This document shows positions 18,424 to 32,000 of a DNA stretch of 32,000 nucleotides, in pieces. The notes under the pieces were generated by a model. The model saw nothing but the letters and a program-made list of their open reading frames with translations. It did no database searches and was not told the origin of the DNA. How positions within the stretch are numbered: the stretch's first letter is position 1; the number at the start of each line of letters is the position of its first letter. Made by a program: the position numbers and the translations under genes. Source of the DNA: Halomicronema hongdechloris C2206. Lineage in GTDB: Bacteria; Cyanobacteriota; Cyanobacteriia; Phormidesmidales; Phormidesmidaceae. The stretch spans positions 390,001-422,000 of the forward strand of contig NZ_CP021983.2 of assembly GCF_002075285.3 (NCBI RefSeq), written 5' to 3'.

Positions 18424-19821
18424 ATGTATCCCACCCCCACAGAGCGATTTGACGAGTTTATCAATCACCATCCAGAGAATAAGCTGGAGCTGATAAACGG
18501 TCAGCTGATTGTGGGCAACGCTCTGACAGGCAGTCGATTGCTACTGAGGCAAATTCTGCATGGATGGGGAGCTGAGGCCGCGATCGCCCTTGCTCCGACA
18601 GAAACTTGGCTCTCAGCGCTGGCTGCAAGCTACAATTTGACGCTTCCCAAGGCGACTTCTATCGAGGCACAACTCAACGCCTTGGAAGCACAGACGAAGG
18701 ACTTTGAGTTCACTCCAGAAGACTTATCGGCTGGGGGGACAGAGGCCACCTGGCCGCACCATCGAACGCGCCAAGCCTTGACGATGGCTTTGTTCCGGCT
18801 GGCTGGAAACGTCGGCGGACAGTCCCTAGGGCGGGACTTCGTCATGCGCCTGGGGGACAACGGGTTTACACCAGACTTGGTGTTTTTCAAAAATTCCGGA
18901 TTGAACCGGCTGTATGACGCTTTCATCAGTGGGCCAACAGAACTCGTCGTTGAAGTGCTGATGCCAGGGCACGAAGAGGCCGATTGCACTACTAAGTACG
19001 AGTCCTACCAAGCCGCCGGAGTACCTGAGTATTGGCTAATCGATCCGAGTGCGGAACAGGTGACGTTTTATCGACTCATAGAGGGTCGCTATCAGTTACA
19101 GTCGCCAGAGGCAGACGGCGCTTACCGCCCTAGCAGCATTCCAGGGTTAGCGTTTCGAGCGGCAGAGCTGTGGCAGGAAGAGGAGCCGCATCCGCTGGAG
19201 TCTTCGCTGTTTGTTGTGGAGCAGCGGGTCGAGGGATTTGAGCGGCAATCAGAGGACGAGGGACCCCATTGGGGATCGCTATTGTTTATTCCGAATATTC
19301 AGATCGATCCGGTGCCGATTAGCTTCGAGGAATTCATCAGTTGGGCTCCCAGAGCCAAATTTGAGTTTATCCAGGGAAAGCCGCTGATTGAATCGACCCC
19401 TGGTACGCGCAATGTGCTGGCGATGTTGTTAATGACCTTTGGTCTGGCCAGTGTGGTGAAGCTATTGCCACCCCAAGCTTGGATTCAGGGATTGCGGCAG
19501 CGTCTGGATTGGGAACGCCAGGATGCTGATCGCAAAGCCGAGTGGTGGGCGATCGCCCGTAAAGCAGCAGAGAAACTCCGCACTGATTTTTCGGTGGGGC
19601 GCTTGGGAGTCATTGGTGACTTGACGATGCCACAACCGTTGAATTATTGGTCGGGCATCACTCTAGTCTATTGGGAGAAACTGGAGAATTCCTGGCAAGC
19701 CTATGAGGTGCTCCGCGACATCGACCCGGATCGCCACATTGTTGATTTACGCCAAGTAGACGAGCGTTGGCTCACAGCGGATCAACTCTGGCAAATTGAC
19801 CGTTATCTAGTGGAGTTGTGA
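18424..19821 (+). CDS. Multi-domain Uma2-related protein (465 aa)
   Basis: Uma2 core TPDLVFF...ELVVEVLMPGHEEADCTTKYESYQAAGVPEYWLIDP. The N-terminal module FDEFINHHPENKLELINGQLIVG recurs at aa ~300 as FEEFISWAPRAKFEFIQGKPLIE. The gap to the preceding Uma2 gene is only 10 nt. Confidence 0.7.
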   Translation: MYPTPTERFDEFINHHPENKLELINGQLIVGNALTGSRLLLRQILHGWGAEAAIALAPTETWLSALAASYNLTLPKATSIEAQLNALEAQTKDFEFTPEDLSAGGTEATWPHHRTRQALTMALFRLAGNVGGQSLGRDFVMRLGDNGFTPDLVFFKNSGLNRLYDAFISGPTELVVEVLMPGHEEADCTTKYESYQAAGVPEYWLIDPSAEQVTFYRLIEGRYQLQSPEADGAYRPSSIPGLAFRAAELWQEEEPHPLESSLFVVEQRVEGFERQSEDEGPHWGSLLFIPNIQIDPVPISFEEFISWAPRAKFEFIQGKPLIESTPGTRNVLAMLLMTFGLASVVKLLPPQAWIQGLRQRLDWERQDADRKAEWWAIARKAAEKLRTDFSVGRLGVIGDLTMPQPLNYWSGITLVYWEKLENSWQAYEVLRDIDPDRHIVDLRQVDERWLTADQLWQIDRYLVEL

Positions 19822-20320: not shown

Positions 20321-20407
20321 GGTAAATGAGGGAGTAGATGGATTGATGGATGAATGGGGTCAGACGATTAGAATTGGTGTAGAGGATTGTCGAGCAAGGT
20401 TGCTGGC

Positions 20408-20989
20408 ATGATGTCTGGTCTGCCGATGGTTTTAAGTCTGGATCAGGTTGAATTGACGGATGAGCAATTCTACCGATTATGCCTGGCGAATCCGAATACA
20501 CCCCTGGAACGATCAGCTTCGGGAGCGTTGGTCATTATGTCACCCGTAGGGGGAGAAAGCGGGGAACGAGAAGCTGATTTGATCACAGACTTAGCGCTTT
20601 GGAATCGACAGATTAAATTAGGCAAGGTTTTTAGCTCATCGACGTTGTTCAAACTACCGGGAGGCGGGGATCGATCTCCTGATGCTGCTTGGATAGAAAA
20701 AACGCGTTGGAATGCATTATCTCCCGAAGAGAAAGCCGGGTTTCCACCGATATGCCCTGATTTCGTCATTGAGCTTCGTTCTAAAACGGATGCTTTGCCT
20801 CCTTTACGGGACAAGATGGAGGAGTATCTAGCCAGTGGTTTACGGTTGGGCTGGTTGATTAATCCCCAGGGACAAGAAGTCGAGGTTTATCGACCGGGGG
20901 CAATCGTCAAAAAAGTGCCCTTTCCAGCCCGTTTATCCGGGGAAGACGTCTTGCCGGGGTTTAAGCTGACTTGGCCTTTGCCGGATTAG
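20408..20989 (+). CDS. Uma2 (DUF820) family endonuclease
   Basis: GGESGEREADL...SPDAAWI...PDFVIELRSKTD...KMEEYLASGLRLGWLINP gives the Uma2 PD-(D/E)xK pattern. I take the first ATG, at 20408. Confidence 0.8.
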   Translation: MMSGLPMVLSLDQVELTDEQFYRLCLANPNTPLERSASGALVIMSPVGGESGEREADLITDLALWNRQIKLGKVFSSSTLFKLPGGGDRSPDAAWIEKTRWNALSPEEKAGFPPICPDFVIELRSKTDALPPLRDKMEEYLASGLRLGWLINPQGQEVEVYRPGAIVKKVPFPARLSGEDVLPGFKLTWPLPD

Positions 20990-22803: not shown

Positions 22804-23135
22804 CTAACGGCAAATTCGGTGAACTGACGCTTGAAGGGGGAGTGGAAACCCAGCACGATGTCGTGCTTAGGCACGCCTCGTTCCACAAGTTCGAGAGCAA
22901 TGCCGCCTTCGGTGCCGTCGTGCTGAATCCAGATTTTGCCGTCTTTGATGTCGAGGTGCAGCACGCAGCCGTAGACTCGGCGTTTATTGGACCAACCGAC
23001 GTGGACGACCTGGTAGCGATCGCGCTGGGTATCGAAAATTAGCTCAGTTTCTAGATCGGGGTTATTGAAGTCAACTTTGCTGTAGTCTTCCAGAAGGTCT
23101 TGGACGAGTTGACGGTAGCTGTCTACGCTTGCCAT
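22800..23135 (-). CDS. xisI: XisI protein
   Basis: YRQLVQDLLEDY...DRYQVVHVGW...YGCVLHLDIKDGKIWIQHDGTE...GVPKHDIVLGFH is the XisI family signature as I remember it. Confidence 0.85.
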   Translation of the reverse strand: MASVDSYRQLVQDLLEDYSKVDFNNPDLETELIFDTQRDRYQVVHVGWSNKRRVYGCVLHLDIKDGKIWIQHDGTEGGIALELVERGVPKHDIVLGFHSPFKRQFTEFAVS

Positions 23136-23539
23136 TTCACGATCACCTCCTCCTCTAGATCATAAATCAGTAATCTGACTTGATAGCGCTCAATCAACCT
23201 CCGAGGCAGCTCCAGCCGGAAGAACTCCCTTTCAGCATCAACTGGAATGGCTAGAAAAAGAGTGCGATCAGGCTCTTCTTCTTCTAGTGCAAGTTGATAT
23301 TTCAGAAATTGTCCTAAAGCGGCGTTGAATTCCGTCGTGGCTGAAGGGCCAATGAAACTTTTGATTTCGACGGCAATTTTCTCATCACCCCGATCAGCCG
23401 CAAGAATGCGCTCGGCCCCCAGGTCAACATACATATCGACCCCACCAAAACTGAGGAACAGCGGATCATGGGTGATGGTCCAACCGTCTTTTTCGAGGGC
23501 GCGCTTGGCAGCATTGTGGAAAATGTCTTTAGCGGCCAT
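23123..23539 (-). CDS. xisH: XisH protein
   Basis: AKDIFHNAAKRALEKDGWTITHDPL...YVDLGAERILAA...IAVEIKSF is typical of XisH. It overlaps xisI by 13 nt in the usual xisH-xisI order. Confidence 0.85.
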   Translation of the reverse strand: MAAKDIFHNAAKRALEKDGWTITHDPLFLSFGGVDMYVDLGAERILAADRGDEKIAVEIKSFIGPSATTEFNAALGQFLKYQLALEEEEPDRTLFLAIPVDAEREFFRLELPRRLIERYQVRLLIYDLEEEVIVKWQA

Positions 23540-24745: not shown

Positions 24746-25131
24746 CATGCTCCCGATACTTTGTGCGGTTTCTTGTATCGAAACCAACAATTTGCTAGTC
24801 GTCTGACAGTATAGGGACCAATCACACACCCTAAACAGTCCTAGAGAAAGGGCTTTCAGAGATCTCTTGACATATCTTTAGAAAAATAATTCTGATCCGG
24901 AATAGCAAGGTTCGGCTGTGTAGAGGAAAACAGCGATCAAAAATCTGCTGTTACAGATATTTCTAATCCTAACAGCCCGGACAATTTTCTAAGCAAGCCC
25001 TGAAACCCTGGATTTCTCGTTCGCTCGACTGCACTAGAGAGGGTTGAAAGCCGCATTCTGGTGTTAGCAGTCAAGAACTATCCGGAGCATTGTAATCCAA
25101 GTCAGAAGTCTATAGCCTACAGGTAATTGTC

Positions 25132-26622
25132 ATGAGTTTCTGCATCAACCCCCAGTGCTCGAAACCTCAAAATTCCCGACAGCCCCTTTTTTGCGAATCA
25201 TGTGGCTCAGATCTACTGCTTGATGGTCGCTATCGAGTCATTGAGCGTCTCGGCAGAGGTGGCTTTGCTGACACGTATGAGGTTTTTGAATTTGGTACAC
25301 CCAAGATTCTGAAAGTTCTACATCATAAAGAACCCAAGGCACTTGAACTGTTCAAACGGGAGTTCGATGTACTAAGTCGTCTCAATCATCCCGGCATTCC
25401 CAAAGTAGACCCTGACGCATATTTTACGTTTATGCCAAAAGGCTCTTTAGAAGTTCTTCATTGCTTTGTAATGGAGAAAATTGAGGGAATGGACCTTGAG
25501 AAATATATGGAAAAACGTGGCAATCAACCTATTTCAGAAAAGACGGGGTTGGCTTGGCTAGAGCAAATCGTTGAAATTTTGCAGGTTATTCACGAGCAAG
25601 ACTTTCTGCATCGCGATATCAAGCCAAGTAACATCATCTTAAAACCTGATGGCCAATTGGCTCTGATCGACTTTGGTGCCGTCCGGGAAATGAGTCAAAC
25701 CTACATGCAAAAGTCTAAAATCACGGCCATCTCATCGGCAGGCTATACACCTCCCGAGCAAGTCAATGGCAAGGCCATTATACAATCTGATTTTTTCGCT
25801 TTAGGTAGAACCTTTGTCTTCCTCTTTACTGGAAAAGAACCTGGAGCTTTTAATTTAGATCCCCGAACAGCAGAACTTGTCTGGCAGGATGATGCCAAGC
25901 AAATTTCAGAGAGAGTCATCGGCATCATTGATCTAATGATGGCTTATATTCCAGACAACAGACCTGCTCTAGCATCAGACGTTCTTCAGGAAATCGAATC
26001 ACCAAAAATATCTCAGAAAATCGAAACGCCCCATTCAAAAAACATACAAAAGCAAGCTTTTTGGCGGAGGTTTCCAGCCGCAGTAATCGATTATGCTGCT
26101 ATAGCGATACTCGGAGTAATTCCTTACAGTATACTCTATGAAGTTTTAGATCGAATTAATCCATATCCTTCATTCCCATATGGCCTGTTCTCTGATGAAG
26201 TAGATCCTATTGAAGAGCAGCTGCATAACCAGCAAGTTGATTTGCACTGGCAGCTAGACAATATTTTTCAATGGATAAGTTTGGTTTCTACATATCTAAT
26301 TGTCGGGGCCGTATACCACGCCTTGACGGAAAGTTCCACGCGGCAAGCAAGCCCAGGGAAAAGACTTTTTAAAGTACATTTGAGAAATGAAATTGGGAAT
26401 CATTTAGGTTTTATGAAAGCTTTAGCAAGAGCTATTCTTAAACAAATATTCTGGTTGCTTTTTGTCCTTTATCCTATTGCATCAGCCACCTATGTTTATG
26501 GCAGCCTTTACTGGTTTAGCCTTGCTGCTTTTCTGTTTGTGGTTATTTCTTTGCTGATCACTCTTCGAAACAAGAACTTTTTGTACGATTTGGCATCCAG
26601 AACGAAAGTTCTGATCAAATAA
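25132..26622 (+). CDS. Ser/Thr protein kinase with an N-terminal 4-Cys zinc ribbon and a C-terminal RDD-family membrane domain
   Basis: The ribbon is CINPQC...CESCG. The kinase motifs are GRGGFADTY (G-loop), ILKVL (Lys), HRDIKPSNIIL, DFGAVR and GYTPPEQ. The C-terminus has RDD hallmarks (RRFPAAVIDY ... SPGKRLFKVHL ... LYDLASRTKVL) with hydrophobic helices. Confidence 0.9.
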   Translation: MSFCINPQCSKPQNSRQPLFCESCGSDLLLDGRYRVIERLGRGGFADTYEVFEFGTPKILKVLHHKEPKALELFKREFDVLSRLNHPGIPKVDPDAYFTFMPKGSLEVLHCFVMEKIEGMDLEKYMEKRGNQPISEKTGLAWLEQIVEILQVIHEQDFLHRDIKPSNIILKPDGQLALIDFGAVREMSQTYMQKSKITAISSAGYTPPEQVNGKAIIQSDFFALGRTFVFLFTGKEPGAFNLDPRTAELVWQDDAKQISERVIGIIDLMMAYIPDNRPALASDVLQEIESPKISQKIETPHSKNIQKQAFWRRFPAAVIDYAAIAILGVIPYSILYEVLDRINPYPSFPYGLFSDEVDPIEEQLHNQQVDLHWQLDNIFQWISLVSTYLIVGAVYHALTESSTRQASPGKRLFKVHLRNEIGNHLGFMKALARAILKQIFWLLFVLYPIASATYVYGSLYWFSLAAFLFVVISLLITLRNKNFLYDLASRTKVLIK

Positions 26623-26884
26623 AAACGTTTAGAATCGAGGATATATATCCAAATGATATTATCTCTGAACTGTCGTGCTTGGAACCCATTTTAACTTTTA
26701 GATTTCACCTAAAACGCAAAAGCTTACAGGAAAAGGTTATGAGCCTCTGCATCAACCCCCAATGCACACATCCTGAAAATTCTCGGCAGCCCCTTTTTTG
26801 TGAATCCTGCGGATCAGAATTGTTGCTCGATGGTCGCTATCGAGTGCTTCAGTATTTGGGCGGAGGCGGTTTCGCTGATGTCTA

Positions 26885-28031
26885 TAGCAATCCCAGTTGA
26901 TTTATGAACAAGGTGAATATTCTTCTATTTTAGAAAAATCGAACTTTTGATGATCTATAAAGAACTCAAACAGATACTTTACAGCGGGGAAAGAACGACA
27001 CAACCTCCAAAATCTTCTCAATGAATTTTTGGCTTGTAACCAAACATCTTCCACTGGATTTTGTTCTGGTGAATTGGGTGCAAATAGAATACATTTGAAT
27101 TGCCATTCTGTCTCTTCTTTCCCATGATTGACTGTAGCTAAAAAATCTTTGATCTCTTGTGACTTATGATAACTAGCGCCATCCCAAATTAATGCGATTT
27201 GCTTCCCAGGATTTTGTTCCTGCAAGTACTTCATAAAAGCAACTGTATTCTCTCCATTCCCTTTCTCGTAAGGATGCAAAATAAATTCTTTTGTTTGATA
27301 GTTTAATGCGCCATAATATGTTTGCCTGATTCTCTCGTTTGTAATAGGGATTTCGATTCGCATATCTGTCTTGCCCCAGACATATCCACAAACATCACCC
27401 CAAAGGAGATGACACTCATCCAAAAAAAGTACAATCAATTCCCCAGACTCAATTTTGAACTGGTTTTGACGGATAAATCCTTGGATTTCTTCTCTTTTTT
27501 TTTGACTAGAGCTGGATCAGATTTTGGGTTGGTTTTTTGAGATTTCTTCCAACTAATACCTGCTTCCGAAAAAAGTGTATAGTAGCTTTGCTTAGACTTG
27601 TAAATCACATCATAATGTTCATCTAAATATGAAACTAATTCATCAAAGTTCCAGTAGTTTCTGGTTCTCAGCCACGAGATAATTTCTGTACGATCATCTG
27701 GGGTTAGGTAACTTTTTGATCCTTGGTAGCCGAGTTTAATACCTTCAATGCCTTGTGCTTCGAATCTGTTCTTCCAATATGTAATAAAAGACTTGTTTAT
27801 TACCAGAAATTTGGTAATCTTAAAATATGGCTCACCCTCCAATGCCATTTTTACAGCCAATGCTCGCTTAAGCTCTCTTGAATCAGGATTACTACTTATA
27901 AAGTCTGATAGAATAGCACGATTATCTACTTTTTGTTGGTGTTCTAATTGAAAACTATTCATGAGTACAACTGTATTGACAGCTTGATGATATTTATATA
28001 CTACCCATTCTAAACTCATTTAGGGTTGCTA
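26885..28031 (-). mobile_element. IS630-family insertion sequence (1147 bp) with a TA target-site duplication
   Basis: Imperfect terminal inverted repeats: tagcaatcccagttga... on the left, and tagcaaccctaaatga... as the reverse complement of the right end. TA is at 26883-26884 and 28032-28033. The transposase ORFs fill the element. Boundaries are good to about 2 nt. Confidence 0.85.
26902..28019 (-). CDS. IS630-family transposase in two frames (orfA 27435-28019, orfB 26902-27438)
   Basis: orfA is an HTH-like N-terminal part and orfB a DDE-type part (LFLDECHLLWGD...IWDGASYHKS...FAPNSPEQNPVEDVW). The orfB frame stays open upstream to an A9 run (27495-27503), where a -1 shift gives ...VKKKREEIQGFIRQNQFKIESGELIVLFLDE. 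Confidence 0.8.
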
Positions 28032-29489
28032 TATGAGGTTGTAGAGTTTGGCGAAGCAAAGGTTCTTAAAGTTCTAAGTTACAAAGCTGAAAATAAGGAA
28101 GAAGCACTTCCAAAATTATTAGAACTCTTTAAGAGAGAATATGAGGTACTAAGCCGTTTGAATAATGATGGCATTCCAAAAGTAGATCCAGGTGATTATT
28201 TCATATTTACTCTAAGGGGATCTTCAGACGTCTTCCATTGCTTTGCGATGGAGAAAATTGAAGGCATGGACCTTGAAAAATATATGAGAAATCGCGGTAA
28301 TAAACCTATTTCAGAAAAGACAAGTTTGGCTTGGCTTGAACAGATTATTGGAATTCTGAAGGTTATCCACGATCAGAACTTCCTTCACAGAGATATCAAA
28401 CCTAGCAACATCATCTTAAAACCTGAGGGGGAGTTAGTTTTGATTGACTTCGGTGCTGTTCGAGAAATGAGCCAAACATATGCAATAAAATCTACAGGTA
28501 CATTCGTTTGCTCGCTTGGTTATACATCACCAGAGCAACAAACAAGTAAGGCGATACCTCAGTCTGATTTTTTCGCATTAGGCAGAACCTTCGTATTCCT
28601 TCTTACTGGAAAGGAAATAAAAGATCTTGAACTTGATGAAACAGCAAAGGAGCTAATCTGGCAAGAGCATGCTATGCAGATCTCAGAAAGGCTTATCAGA
28701 ATTATTGACTCAATGGTGGCATATGCTCCAGCTAAAAGGCCAAGTAGTGCAGAAGATATCATTCATGCCTTAGAGAGTATTTCCAAAAAGCCTTCTCCAA
28801 AAGGACAATCTAATTCGAAGCCCTATAAGACTAATCTGAAGCCCTATAAGACAATAAGAAAAGATATTTATAAAAGAGTTGTAGCATTTGTGCTCGACTA
28901 CTTCATGATAGGGAGTTTATTTGTCGGTATTGCATATTTTTTCTTCCACGAAGCACTATTGAACGAATTTCATGACCCTTTGTGGCTTATATATCTAGGT
29001 TTCCCTGTAATTCTTGGGGTTAGCTTCGTGGGGAATGTTTTCGACGATGGTGGCTATTTATTTGTCTGGCCATTTCCATTCTTTTTTATGCTTTTTGTTT
29101 TCGCCTATCCAATATTTTCAGAAAACTCGAAAGCGATGGGAACTCTAGGGAAAAGTATAGTTGGATTGAAAGTATTAAGAGTTGATCTTAAGAAAGCATC
29201 TAAATTGCAGATATGGTTTAGGACGACACTTAAATTTTTATACTCTATTTATATCGGCGGCTCTTTTTTGTTTTTCATCCCCGCAGTTATTCAAGACTTT
29301 GGAGAGAAATTAAGAGAACCTTCACCCAGAAGTTCAGCGGCGATGCTATTGGGCTGTGTGTGGTTAATTTCGACCCTTGTATCACTCAAACCATTAGTTT
29401 CCGGTGGAAGACTTATTCATGATATTGTTTCCGGAACACTGGTTGTGTCAAGAAAGAAGTAAGCTGAAAGACCACTTTCAGAACAAAAT

Positions 29490-30068
29490 ATGGCTATTAC
29501 TCTGAATTTGATTCATAAGAGTTTAAATGCTCAAGCTGCCACATCTTGGGATTTTGATACTAAGAGAAACAACTCCTCGATAATTATTGGTCGAGATTCG
29601 AGTTCTTGTCATGTTCATCTCAAAGACCTTTCTGTAGCCAAAATACACGCCTCAATATTTTTCAAGGCTGACTTTAATGGATACTACATTCATAACTTGC
29701 AGCCATTAAATCCAATCTCTATCGATGGAGCAGTTTTAATTCAAGGCGAAGCTCGACTTTGGCAAGGGAGTACTATTCAACTCGGTAACTCCACATTATT
29801 AGTTGAAAAACTCAAACTCTCATCGAATAAAGCGATCTCTAGCCAAACACCCAATCGTAATTCCCTCTCTACAAATTCTCCAGCGCGGTTGATTACCCCT
29901 TCTCAATTGTCCTCATCACCACCCACGCCTCAGCCTACCCAAGAACACGGCCTTCAGTGCCCTAAATGCCAAACGATCCATCCCTTAACTAGTCAGAATG
30001 TATCTTGTCATATTTGCGGCCATTTCTTGGCAGATGCTGATAGCGTCTTGATATCTCCCAAGCACTGA
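29490..30068 (+). CDS. FHA domain protein with a C-terminal 4-Cys zinc ribbon
   Basis: The FHA pattern is IIIGRDSSSCHVHLKDLSVAKIHASIFF...IHNLQPLNPISIDG...GSTIQLGNSTLLV. A S/P/T/Q-rich linker follows, then CPKC-x13-CHIC. It starts 27 nt after the kinase 2 stop. Confidence 0.8.
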   Translation: MAITLNLIHKSLNAQAATSWDFDTKRNNSSIIIGRDSSSCHVHLKDLSVAKIHASIFFKADFNGYYIHNLQPLNPISIDGAVLIQGEARLWQGSTIQLGNSTLLVEKLKLSSNKAISSQTPNRNSLSTNSPARLITPSQLSSSPPTPQPTQEHGLQCPKCQTIHPLTSQNVSCHICGHFLADADSVLISPKH

Positions 30069-30083
30069 GAAGGTGAGTAAATC

Positions 30084-32000
30084 ATGCCTCCCTTTCCCCT
30101 TAAAATTCGACTTACTTGGAAGGATAGCGTTACCCAAGATACTCGAAATCCGCTTCTCAGCTTACCCATTGCACTGGGAAGCGAATTCTCAGCCATGCCA
30201 GCAAATTTAGGGCAGTTGGCAGTTTCACGCATGACATTTCGAGATCCGATCGCCTCCAAATTTCATGCCTTTATTTATTTAGAGAACAATCAACCTGTCA
30301 TCATTGATCAAAATACGCCTGCTGGAACCTGGATCAACAACGTTAGAGTTCAAAAACATATTCTCCGAGATCACGACGTTATTTGCCTGGGGAATCAAGA
30401 GATTCGCGTCCGCTTGGTTTCTCAGGCTTCCTCGCCAACATCTGCCAGTTATCAATGCGCAAACGTTCCTCTCAATCCGCCAACGTCTCAACCTCAGACC
30501 AAACCTAAATTTCCACCTGCGGCCTTCAAACAAGCTGAGTATGTTTCGCTTGACTACCTGGAGGAGACGGGGCGATTCAACCCCAGAAAAGATCAGTTCG
30601 ACTACGCTGCCATTGGCGCAGGGCTGGGCAGTTACATTTGGGTAGACTTTCTTCGTATCTTTGGGGTGAAAGCAGAACGCATTGTGGCGTTGGGTACTCA
30701 GGATAAGCCCTATGCCCGATATCAACAGTTGTGCCTGAATTCTCAAATTCCCCCTCACGAAAGACTACGCTCTAACTCTGACTCTTGCCCAGACAACATT
30801 TGGGGGTGGCCCAGCTATGCCCTGAGAGAGTCCTGGCAGGATTTCTGGAAAGGACGTGTAAACCATACTCTCGAATCTCTCTGGCAAGTTTTTTCTGAAC
30901 CCGTTCTTGCCGAAACTTATACGCCAAAATCCGGGAATGTTTTCAAGTCCATTGACCGAGAAGCGAACCGGATTGGATGGTCAGACATTTTTCGGCATGG
31001 CAGTGTCCGCGCCATTCGCAAAATGAGTGATGGCAGATATGCCATTGCCTATTCCCAAGGAAAAGGCCGATATGGTTTTGTAGTGGCGAAACACATTCAT
31101 CTATCAACAGGGTATCCCGGCATCCGACTGTTGAAACACTTGAAAGAATATCGAGATAAAACAAAGGATCTCAAATCTGTGGTTAATGCTTACGAGTCTC
31201 ACGAACATATCTATGACTCTCTAGTTGAGCAAGGCGGTACTGTGCTGATTCAGGGCCGAGGCATTGTTGCCTCCAGAATTCTTCAACGGATTTATGAGAC
31301 TTGCCAGAAAAGTTCTCACCGTATAGAAGTGATCCACATGATGCGGCGACCTATTGGCAGGAATGAGGGAAATAAATTTGGTCTAGCGCAGCGCTCAGTC
31401 AGCAATCACTTTGAATTACAACCATTCAACTGGCCGAAAGCTTGTTGGGGAGGAGACCTCCGGGACGTGTTGGAGAAGGCTAGTGACTCGGAAAGAACTC
31501 AACTCCTCAAAGCTTGGGGTGGCACAACTACTGCTGATCGCCGTGATTGGCAAAGGATCATTGCTTCTGGACTCCGAGATCAATGGTATCGGCCTAAATT
31601 TGGTTCCGTGAAAGAAGTTGAGCCTGCTGGTAGGCAGCTTAAAGTTACATATTCCGAAGTTGAAGGTGGCAAAGTTCAGGGAGTTGCCACTCGGGAAGTA
31701 GACTTCATCATTGACGCTACTGGTTTAGAAGCTGATTTGGAAGTGAGTCCTCTCTTAAAGGATTTAATTGATTGCTACAGCTTGCAACTCCTTGATAACG
31801 GACGATTCAAAATCTCGAACGAATTTGAAATTGCTGAGATGTGTTCCAAGCAGACGGGCCAGCAACCAGGGCATATGTATGCCTCTGGTGTAATCACACT
31901 AGGAGGACCGTACGCGGCTGTAGACAGTTTCTTAGGGTTGCAATATGGAGCTCTTCGCTCTATAGATAGCCTGGTAAAAAAACGGGCACCTGGTCTGCGT
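30084..32000 (+). CDS. FHA domain fused to a flavoprotein-like (FAD/NAD(P)-binding) oxidoreductase domain; the 3' end lies outside the window
   Basis: I translated 639 codons by hand with no stop, from ATG 30084 (in-frame TAA two codons upstream, aaggtgag RBS-like) to base 32000. This ORF is not in the supplied track. The FHA region is aa 1-110 (SKFHAFIYL...DQNTPAGTWINN...ICLGNQEIRV), followed by a P/S/T/Q linker. Then come DYAAIGAGLGSY, VLIQGRGIVASRILQRI (GxGxxA) and VDFIIDATGLEAD (ATG motif). Confidence 0.8.
   Translation, partial: MPPFPLKIRLTWKDSVTQDTRNPLLSLPIALGSEFSAMPANLGQLAVSRMTFRDPIASKFHAFIYLENNQPVIIDQNTPAGTWINNVRVQKHILRDHDVICLGNQEIRVRLVSQASSPTSASYQCANVPLNPPTSQPQTKPKFPPAAFKQAEYVSLDYLEETGRFNPRKDQFDYAAIGAGLGSYIWVDFLRIFGVKAERIVALGTQDKPYARYQQLCLNSQIPPHERLRSNSDSCPDNIWGWPSYALRESWQDFWKGRVNHTLESLWQVFSEPVLAETYTPKSGNVFKSIDREANRIGWSDIFRHGSVRAIRKMSDGRYAIAYSQGKGRYGFVVAKHIHLSTGYPGIRLLKHLKEYRDKTKDLKSVVNAYESHEHIYDSLVEQGGTVLIQGRGIVASRILQRIYETCQKSSHRIEVIHMMRRPIGRNEGNKFGLAQRSVSNHFELQPFNWPKACWGGDLRDVLEKASDSERTQLLKAWGGTTTADRRDWQRIIASGLRDQWYRPKFGSVKEVEPAGRQLKVTYSEVEGGKVQGVATREVDFIIDATGLEADLEVSPLLKDLIDCYSLQLLDNGRFKISNEFEIAEMCSKQTGQQPGHMYASGVITLGGPYAAVDSFLGLQYGALRSIDSLVKKRAPGLR

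Follow-up and report, generated by a model that had tools for sequence, protein, structure and literature searches.

GarA and OdhI, actinobacterial regulators of 2-oxoglutarate metabolism, use an FHA domain to bind a phosphothreonine in their own flexible segment and so switch the regulation of enzymes. Zeaxanthin epoxidase is a class A flavin monooxygenase of the FAD_binding_3 type, with a single Rossmann domain and its FHA domain at the C-terminus. This enzyme of plants and algae, which has flavin adenine dinucleotide (FAD) and FHA domains and uses reduced nicotinamide adenine dinucleotide phosphate (NADPH), is the closest architectural analogue of the protein described here (PMC11429058). 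Class B flavoprotein monooxygenases have two domains of CATH class 3.50.50.60, the NADPH-binding copy being inserted in the split FAD-binding copy (PMC4981433). We analysed a stretch of 32,000 nucleotides from the cyanobacterium Halomicronema hongdechloris C2206 (the window; positions 390,001 to 422,000 of contig NZ_CP021983.2, assembly GCF_002075285.3), in which a gene at 30084–32000 on the plus strand encodes an FHA domain followed by a flavoenzyme-like domain resembling N-hydroxylating monooxygenases (NMOs). We favour, with moderate confidence, the view that its product is a cytoplasmic two-domain protein whose class-B-type, NMO-like flavoprotein domain belongs to a conserved, phospho-regulated module together with a membrane protein and an FHA adaptor.

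Translation of the window shows that codons 1–639 of the gene are free of stops in frame 3 from the ATG at 30084 to the last base, a run with a probability of ~1e-15 by chance as estimated from the base composition (GC ~0.47). The C-terminal 490 residues, the part searched, are 100% identical to a 659-residue protein of the same strain (P0001; XM38_003990, ASC69472.1, WP_080812792.1), labelled 'hypothetical protein' or 'FHA domain-containing protein', the final 20 codons of which fall outside the window. The annotated start is the same ATG; it lies 15 nucleotides past the stop of the FHA gene upstream, with GAAGGTGAG, which is like a ribosome-binding site, in front of it. This arrangement fits an operon. 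The list of open reading frames (ORFs) for the window holds only short, overlapping ones here (30279–30758 and 30943–31164 on the minus strand, 30304–30645 and 31411–31611 on the plus strand), because the lister omits by its stated rule any ORF that runs off an end. A sequence-only reading of the window had proposed both the 639-codon open-ended frame and this reason for its absence from the list, and was right on each; the gene is a genuine one, already in GenBank and uncharacterised, and no gene had been missed.

The fold of the C-terminal domain (residues 143–639 of 143–659; 30510–32000, plus strand; pLDDT 89) was predicted with AlphaFold2 (AF2). A model built with 81 sequences from Cyanobacteria and Chloroflexota (predicted local distance difference test score, pLDDT, 89.3; predicted template-modelling score, pTM, 0.78) has an FHA sandwich at residues 7–112, disorder at 115–138 and two beta-alpha-beta units at 171–204 and 385–420. 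In a Foldseek search of the PDB with this model the top 50 matches were all NMOs (E 5e-17 to 8e-14, template-modelling score on the target, TM(target), 0.66–0.75, root-mean-square deviation, RMSD, 5–6 Å, identity 11–16%), to which the domain aligns as to class B NMOs over its full length. PvdA was best (3s5w; E 5e-17, TM(target) 0.73–0.75, RMSD ~5 Å), and SidA, KtzI, DesB, DfoA and putrescine N-hydroxylase were among the others. The same top matches were returned by a first, lower-confidence model made from 30 cyanobacterial orthologues (pLDDT 76.7), in which the invariant loops described below were poorly modelled.

The nucleotide-binding motifs are sited in the model as this fold predicts. 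GAGLGS (residues 178–183; 30615–30632), a putative FAD-binding GxGxxS motif, lies in the first beta-alpha-beta unit (strand 171–177, helix 181–192, strand 200–204), and GRGIVA (residues 391–396; 31254–31271), a putative NADPH-binding GxGxxA motif, in the second (strand 385–390, helix 394–409, strand 414–420), with conserved H418 and R421 at the end of strand 2. DATG (residues 544–547; 31713–31724) follows the strand 541–544 as the second ATG motif, at the point where the chain re-enters the FAD domain, and TGY at residues 342–344, in a segment that includes G343 (31101–31118), was counted as the other ATG-type motif; all four features are on the plus strand. Key residues of these motifs are conserved in 69–81 diverse members of the family: G178, G180, G343, G391 and G393 are invariant, S183, A396, D544, T546 and G547 invariant or at least 90% conserved, and H339 is at least 90% conserved among the 69. 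Like NMOs, the protein thus combines a split FAD domain having an inserted NADPH domain with GxGxx(S/N/G), GxGxxA ~213 residues further on and an ATG-type motif ~150 residues beyond that, and keeps a conserved Arg that follows strand 2 in the NADPH unit. The stretch V367-x-A-x3-H373-x3-Y377, 18 residues before GRGIVA, may resemble the flavin-containing monooxygenase motif FxGxxxHxxxY/F, a likeness that we take as a lead only. The sequence-only reading had named AIGAGLGS, GRGIVA and DATG as motifs ordered as in FAD/NAD(P)H-dependent oxidoreductases and NMOs. The motifs are there and the nearest structures bear out the likeness; the Rossmann-type folds that it expected were found by structure prediction, at both glycine motifs, and not by sequence profiles.

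Relatives of the protein number 383 in a HMMER scan of 1.84e9 cluster representatives (50% clustering) and occur in at least 598 species-level genomes in a genome scan; the small number of representatives marks a compact, distinct family, whose named members come from many orders of Cyanobacteria and from Chloroflexota/Anaerolineae. Identity is 26–54% among 69 diverse members and 55–65% across cyanobacterial orders. Conservation is strictest at residues 223–238, 446–461 and 476–484 (window ~30750–31535), that is, ERLRSNSDSCPDNIWGWP, QPFNWPKACWGG and WGGTTTADR. These segments were the least confident part of the shallow-alignment model and became confident only with the two-phylum alignment, and they probably form a family-specific active site or partner interface. 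Also conserved in family-specific loops are R227, R229, S230, S232, D237, N238, W240, E249, E272, E293, R296, H339, Y370, H373, Q446, R486, D560 and D614, together with near-invariant W650 and W653 in a C-terminal helix. The Halomicronema protein retains every family invariant of the enzyme domain.

What varies in the family is the N-terminal module, which may be missing, one FHA domain, two FHA domains or a Ser/Thr kinase. One FHA domain is present in ~30 of the 69 representatives and two in P0121, P0124, P0128 and P0131; many Chloroflexota members have no such module, and in P0167 a complete protein kinase domain replaces the FHA. The full-text literature yielded no publication on this family, in keeping with the suggestion of the sequence-only reading that the architecture is uncharacterised, but a fusion of FHA with a flavin monooxygenase as such has a precedent in zeaxanthin epoxidase. 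The present protein differs from the latter in being class-B-like, with two dinucleotide domains and an N-terminal FHA, and no sequence relationship between the two was detected.

As the sequence-only reading had supposed, the N-terminal ~110 residues are an FHA domain (residues 7–112; 30102–30419, plus strand). Pfam PF00498 matches residues 43–103 (41.2 bits, cut-off 20.7; E 2.3e-10), PDB sequence profiles match GarA, OdhI and Rv0020c (best E ~2e-9), NCBIfam gives weak FHA-type matches and nothing else for the protein, and the model shows an eleven-stranded beta-sandwich at pLDDT 88–98. GarA and OdhI, the best sequence matches of the domain, are stand-alone regulators of separate enzymes, whereas here the FHA is fused to an enzyme-like domain. 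Binding of phosphothreonine (pThr) by FHA domains and the stability of the pocket need the GR, SxxH and NG motifs (PMC3162421). In the Halomicronema protein these read GS33, S58-K-F-H61 and A80-G81, so that four of the six canonical residues are kept and the Arg of GR and the Asn of NG are lost; in addition, SK59 replaces SR. Each of the three substitutions is the Halomicronema protein's own: orthologues show 117 R to 1 S at the GR arginine, 119 R to 1 K at the SR arginine and, among 120, 118 N to 1 A to 1 S at the NG asparagine, where the Ala is that of Halomicronema. It alone among the 120 has lost both the GR Arg and the NG Asn. Non-canonical FHA domains have been described in MxiG-N and in FHA-2 of Cpn0172; MxiG-N likewise keeps four of these six residues, and it does not bind pThr (PMC3162421). 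The difference is that in the present family the canonical residues are the rule (117–119 of 120 orthologues) and the loss is specific to Halomicronema. For this protein the ratio of identity in the FHA to that in the enzyme domain is 0.62, the lowest of 30 orthologues (median 0.79).

Between the two domains lies the low-complexity linker of the sequence-only reading, rich in Ser, Pro and Thr (residues 113–142; 30420–30509, plus strand) and disordered in the model (pLDDT <50 at 115–125 and 133–138). A linker motif PxTxLP(D/E), the Thr of which is a candidate phospho-acceptor, is kept in at least 92 of 120 orthologues and is degenerate, NPPTSQP, in the Halomicronema protein.

Gene neighbourhoods were examined at 88 loci. 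Directly upstream and on the same strand, 78 of the 81 loci with enough upstream sequence have a gene for an FHA protein of 166–225 residues, the exceptions being two FHA-less Chloroflexota loci and one metagenome-assembled genome. In the small protein an S/P-rich linker joins the FHA domain to a four-Cys zinc ribbon, and its family as a whole has NPP in place of the NG motif. Its representative in the window (29490–30068, plus strand) has the FHA at residues 31–99 (Pfam E 1.8e-11) and, at the C-terminus, the conserved zinc-ribbon cysteines C157, C160, C173 and C176. Four of its residues at near-invariant positions are shared by no other of the 75 orthologues: S50A (the Ser of SxxH), E55S, R32I and R68H.

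The second recurrent neighbour is a hydrophobic protein of ~140 residues with three to four predicted membrane spans and conserved MTPTLLGRWQTR, RWDxDWP, HYxxVW and FPRWRFxGGxW; of the 85 loci whose sequence extends downstream of the enzyme gene, 37 encode it there, on the enzyme's strand. We found no Pfam or NCBIfam family for it, and its 788 homologues, among them P0457 of H. hongdechloris, are all annotated as 'hypothetical'. Its gene often overlaps the stop codon of the enzyme gene, including at both FHA-less Chloroflexota loci and at the kinase-fusion locus. Because the membrane-protein gene is present also at the FHA-less and kinase-fused loci, the enzyme and the membrane protein are the invariant core of the module and the phospho-signalling parts are add-ons. 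In one Chloroflexota genome (L007, 9629–11716) the membrane-partner domain is the N-terminus of a 695-residue protein whose extension has a weak match to the immunoglobulin-like Big_7 family, a sequence fusion that hints at an extracytoplasmic extension of the membrane partner.

At several Nostocales loci (L001, L004, L017, L021 and others) a gene for a GDSL/SGNH lipase (25 loci) or for an Rce1-like CPBP intramembrane protease (8 loci) stands between the enzyme and membrane-partner genes. Endonuclease V is encoded upstream of the small FHA gene at 60 loci; it was considered as a functional partner and set aside, being a housekeeping gene that neither the window nor the Chloroflexota loci contain, and the linkage is most likely inherited synteny.

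Ser/Thr kinase genes lie within 10 kb at 11 of 87 loci and directly adjacent in the window and at L003, L008, L009 and L019. Since at least three unrelated groups are represented among the adjacent kinases, a single dedicated kinase lineage was rejected. The kinase-fusion locus (L088; GCA_041744375.1, 2843–14406) has three further kinases and one FHA protein; its genes form an operon-like run in the order kinase, 298-residue protein, kinase–enzyme fusion, membrane partner, TauE-family permease, kinase, zinc-ribbon FHA protein and kinase. The TauE neighbour, from a family of sulfite or organosulfonate exporters, might point to sulfur chemistry.

In the window two kinase genes in tandem precede the small FHA gene. 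The first (25132–26622, plus strand) encodes an N-terminal zinc ribbon (CxxC...CxxC), a Hanks-type kinase domain (Pkinase, E 1e-30) and an RDD membrane domain (E 8e-14), with hydrophobic spans at residues 314–339 and 434–477. The second (26739–29462, plus strand) is a paralogue with the same three domains, split by an insertion sequence (IS) into codons 1–49 (26739–26885), 80% identical to residues 1–49 of the first kinase, and a remainder (28026–29462) that is 59% identical to it from residue 49 on. The interrupting element carries an IS630-type transposase on the minus strand (26902–28019; Pfam DDE_3 and HTH_33/32) in two ORFs, 26902–27438 and 27435–28019, and has imperfect inverted repeats of 28 nucleotides at 26620–26647 and 27995–28022. 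GC content drops to 0.36–0.44 across 25000–30000, where the kinases, the IS and the small FHA gene lie; it is ~0.5–0.66 over most of the window and ~0.47 in the gene at 30084–32000 itself. The low values could reflect foreign origin or fast evolution of regulatory genes. Further upstream are two genes for putative endonucleases of the Uma2 family and one XisH gene (18424–19821, 20387–20989 and 23123–23539), of gene families that are typical of cyanobacteria. Because both FHA domains have lost phosphate-contact residues and one kinase is disrupted by the IS, phospho-regulation in Halomicronema looks, at the level of sequence, relaxed, degenerate or rewired, while the enzyme domain looks intact.

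Class B enzymes are the basis on which we propose cofactor sites and a chemistry of reduced flavin and O2 (PMC7347517, PMC4981433). FAD would be bound at GAGLGS in the first Rossmann unit and NADPH at GRGIVA and R421 in the second, with H418 and R421 beyond strand 2 as suitable partners for the 2'-phosphate; reduced flavin would then react with O2 to oxygenate a nucleophilic small substrate. The protein's membrane partner and its C-terminal helix, rich in Trp, point to a reaction at a membrane. The variable N-terminal module would couple the enzyme to Hanks-type Ser/Thr phosphorylation, with the small FHA and zinc-ribbon protein acting as a putative adaptor in cyanobacteria, and the probable route would be pThr-dependent docking of the FHA to an autophosphorylated kinase, to the adaptor or to the enzyme's own phospho-linker in a switch like that of GarA and OdhI. 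The gene, its domains and fold, the conservation of motifs and neighbours and the FHA substitutions are observed; what we infer in this scheme is that the protein binds the cofactors, is catalytic as a monooxygenase, associates with a membrane and is phospho-regulated. The proposal of the sequence-only reading that a tethered redox enzyme is under kinase control has independent support at the level of the family, from the two kinases upstream in the window, the kinases at other loci and the kinase fusion P0167, but fits poorly with the FHA of the window, which is without the GR Arg and the NG Asn.

Several observations weigh against this interpretation. The pThr pocket of the window copy is, from its residues, probably impaired, and the label 'phosphothreonine reader' is doubtful for it because the GR Arg and NG Asn are lost. 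The putative FAD motif is GxGxxS rather than the classical GxGxxG. Single-protein searches with the C-terminal ~515 residues gave no match in Pfam, NCBIfam or PADLOC and none among PDB sequences, and a 30-sequence full-length alignment matched PDB profiles in its FHA part only. A profile of 40 FHA-less relatives found in the PDB only non-significant matches, to cholesterol oxidase (E 0.035), the BphA4 ferredoxin reductase (E 0.35) and an NDH-2-like protein (E 1.3), and a pooled Pfam scan of the 69 members gave sub-threshold matches only (Trp_halogenase 4, Lys_Orn_oxgnase 3, Pyr_redox_2 2). As no flavoprotein family in Pfam, NCBIfam or PDB profiles is matched significantly by sequence (matches absent or E > 0.009), cofactor binding and catalysis are read from fold and motifs, and the NMO relationship is, on the models, detectable at fold level only. 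The neighbouring genes give no pathway clue to the substrate, and the kinase adjacency is sporadic, at a frequency that we estimate to be near chance for kinase-rich cyanobacterial genomes.

The domain might also be no enzyme. A non-catalytic sensor of nucleotide or redox state, or a scaffold, could keep the kinase network informed of NADP(H) or flavin status or hold a signalling complex at the membrane partner, and would account for N-terminal modules that, where present, are always signalling domains, for the tight linkage to the adaptor-like FHA and zinc-ribbon gene, and for the absence of co-occurring metabolic pathway genes and of detectable sequence kinship to active flavoenzyme families. 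We nevertheless consider such a pseudoenzyme unlikely: both dinucleotide motifs, both ATG motifs and many polar residues of nearby loops are invariant over two phyla, which is more like an active site, and there are FHA-less stand-alone forms accompanied by the membrane partner only.

Two other assignments are improbable, and about equally so. One is a genuine siderophore-type NMO, an ornithine, lysine or diamine hydroxylase like SidA, PvdA or IucD, that merely bears an extra FHA. The structural matches are exclusively to NMOs, and sub-threshold Lys_Orn_oxgnase matches (E ~0.05) occur in three of the 69 members. PF13434, however, is unmatched in the window protein (even at E <= 1) and in 66 of the 69 relatives, PDB sequence profiles find no NMO, and identity to the NMO structures is as low as noted above. 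The NMO substrate-region motif, which we take to be D(x)3(L/F)ATGY(x)4(H/P), corresponds here to D540-FII-D-ATG-L548, which keeps the Asp and ATG but has D at the L/F position, L where the motif has Y, and neither H nor P at +5. The protein is also ~70–100 residues larger than NMOs and differs from them in its N-terminal FHA (or kinase) module and in its own invariant loops, for to our knowledge ERLRSNSDSCPDNIWGWP, QPFNWPKACWGG and WGGTTTADR have no counterpart motif in NMOs. No non-ribosomal peptide synthetase or IucA/IucC-type genes, nor others for natural-product biosynthesis, adjoin at the 88 loci; its recurrent neighbours are instead the membrane protein, the FHA and zinc-ribbon adaptor, endonuclease V and the GDSL lipase, not siderophore synthetases, and the identity across cyanobacterial orders argues for a conserved role of a housekeeping type. 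Membership in the NMO family is therefore not supported: the profile is unmatched, the motif partial and the siderophore gene context absent.

The other is an oxidoreductase at the membrane, of the NAD(P)H:quinone or sulfide type and comparable to NDH-2, sulfide:quinone oxidoreductase (SQR) or a disulfide reductase, which would hand its electrons to the membrane partner or send them through it. The conservation of that partner speaks for it, and near-invariant W650 and W653 recall amphipathic anchors such as NDH-2 and SQR carry; dihydrolipoamide dehydrogenases were among the matches of the first model, and the NDH-2-like profile match at E 1.3 points the same way. With the high-confidence model, however, the top 50 contain no disulfide reductase or NDH-2, and for the dihydrolipoamide dehydrogenases the first model had given a TM(target) of only ~0.4. 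C235 and C454, examined as a redox-active disulfide, were rejected as such, both being unconserved family-wide and outside cyanobacteria.

An anti-phage defence island of PD-T4-6-like kinases and FHA-tagged effectors is very improbable: PADLOC PD-T4-6 models match nearly the whole length of each kinase (E 4e-135 and 9e-88), and the low-GC stretch at 25–30 kb, the IS element and the nearby Uma2/XisH genes would suit an island, but these models are in our judgement generic Hanks-kinase models, neither the gene nor its small FHA partner has a PADLOC match, most loci are without kinases, and a pair of FHA and enzyme genes found in so many species and kept in synteny at 87 loci, endonuclease V included, is unlike patchy islands.

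The NMO-like flavoprotein in a phospho-regulated module thus remains our preferred reading. Few direct enzymatic outputs are known for bacterial Ser/Thr kinase signalling, and many cyanobacterial kinases have no known targets. The family described here, an enzyme-like domain fused to phospho-signalling modules with two unannotated conserved partners, is not surprising in principle, yet it is widespread and uncharacterised. It also illustrates that a large conserved domain can escape Pfam and NCBIfam and be recognisable through structure prediction only. The family offers an entry point to a new class-B-like flavoenzyme branch, to a link from kinases to metabolism and, via the degenerate Halomicronema variant, to the role of the FHA domain. 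More tentatively, and as a reading less likely than not to hold, we put forward that this is a new family of NMO-fold flavoproteins which, with the membrane protein, would carry out membrane-proximal oxygenation or redox chemistry gated by Ser/Thr phosphorylation through swappable modules and an adaptor, and that the reader layer has decayed in Halomicronema. If true, Cyanobacteria and Chloroflexota would share a new module of chemistry plus signalling, and Halomicronema would be a natural experiment in the decay of its reader.

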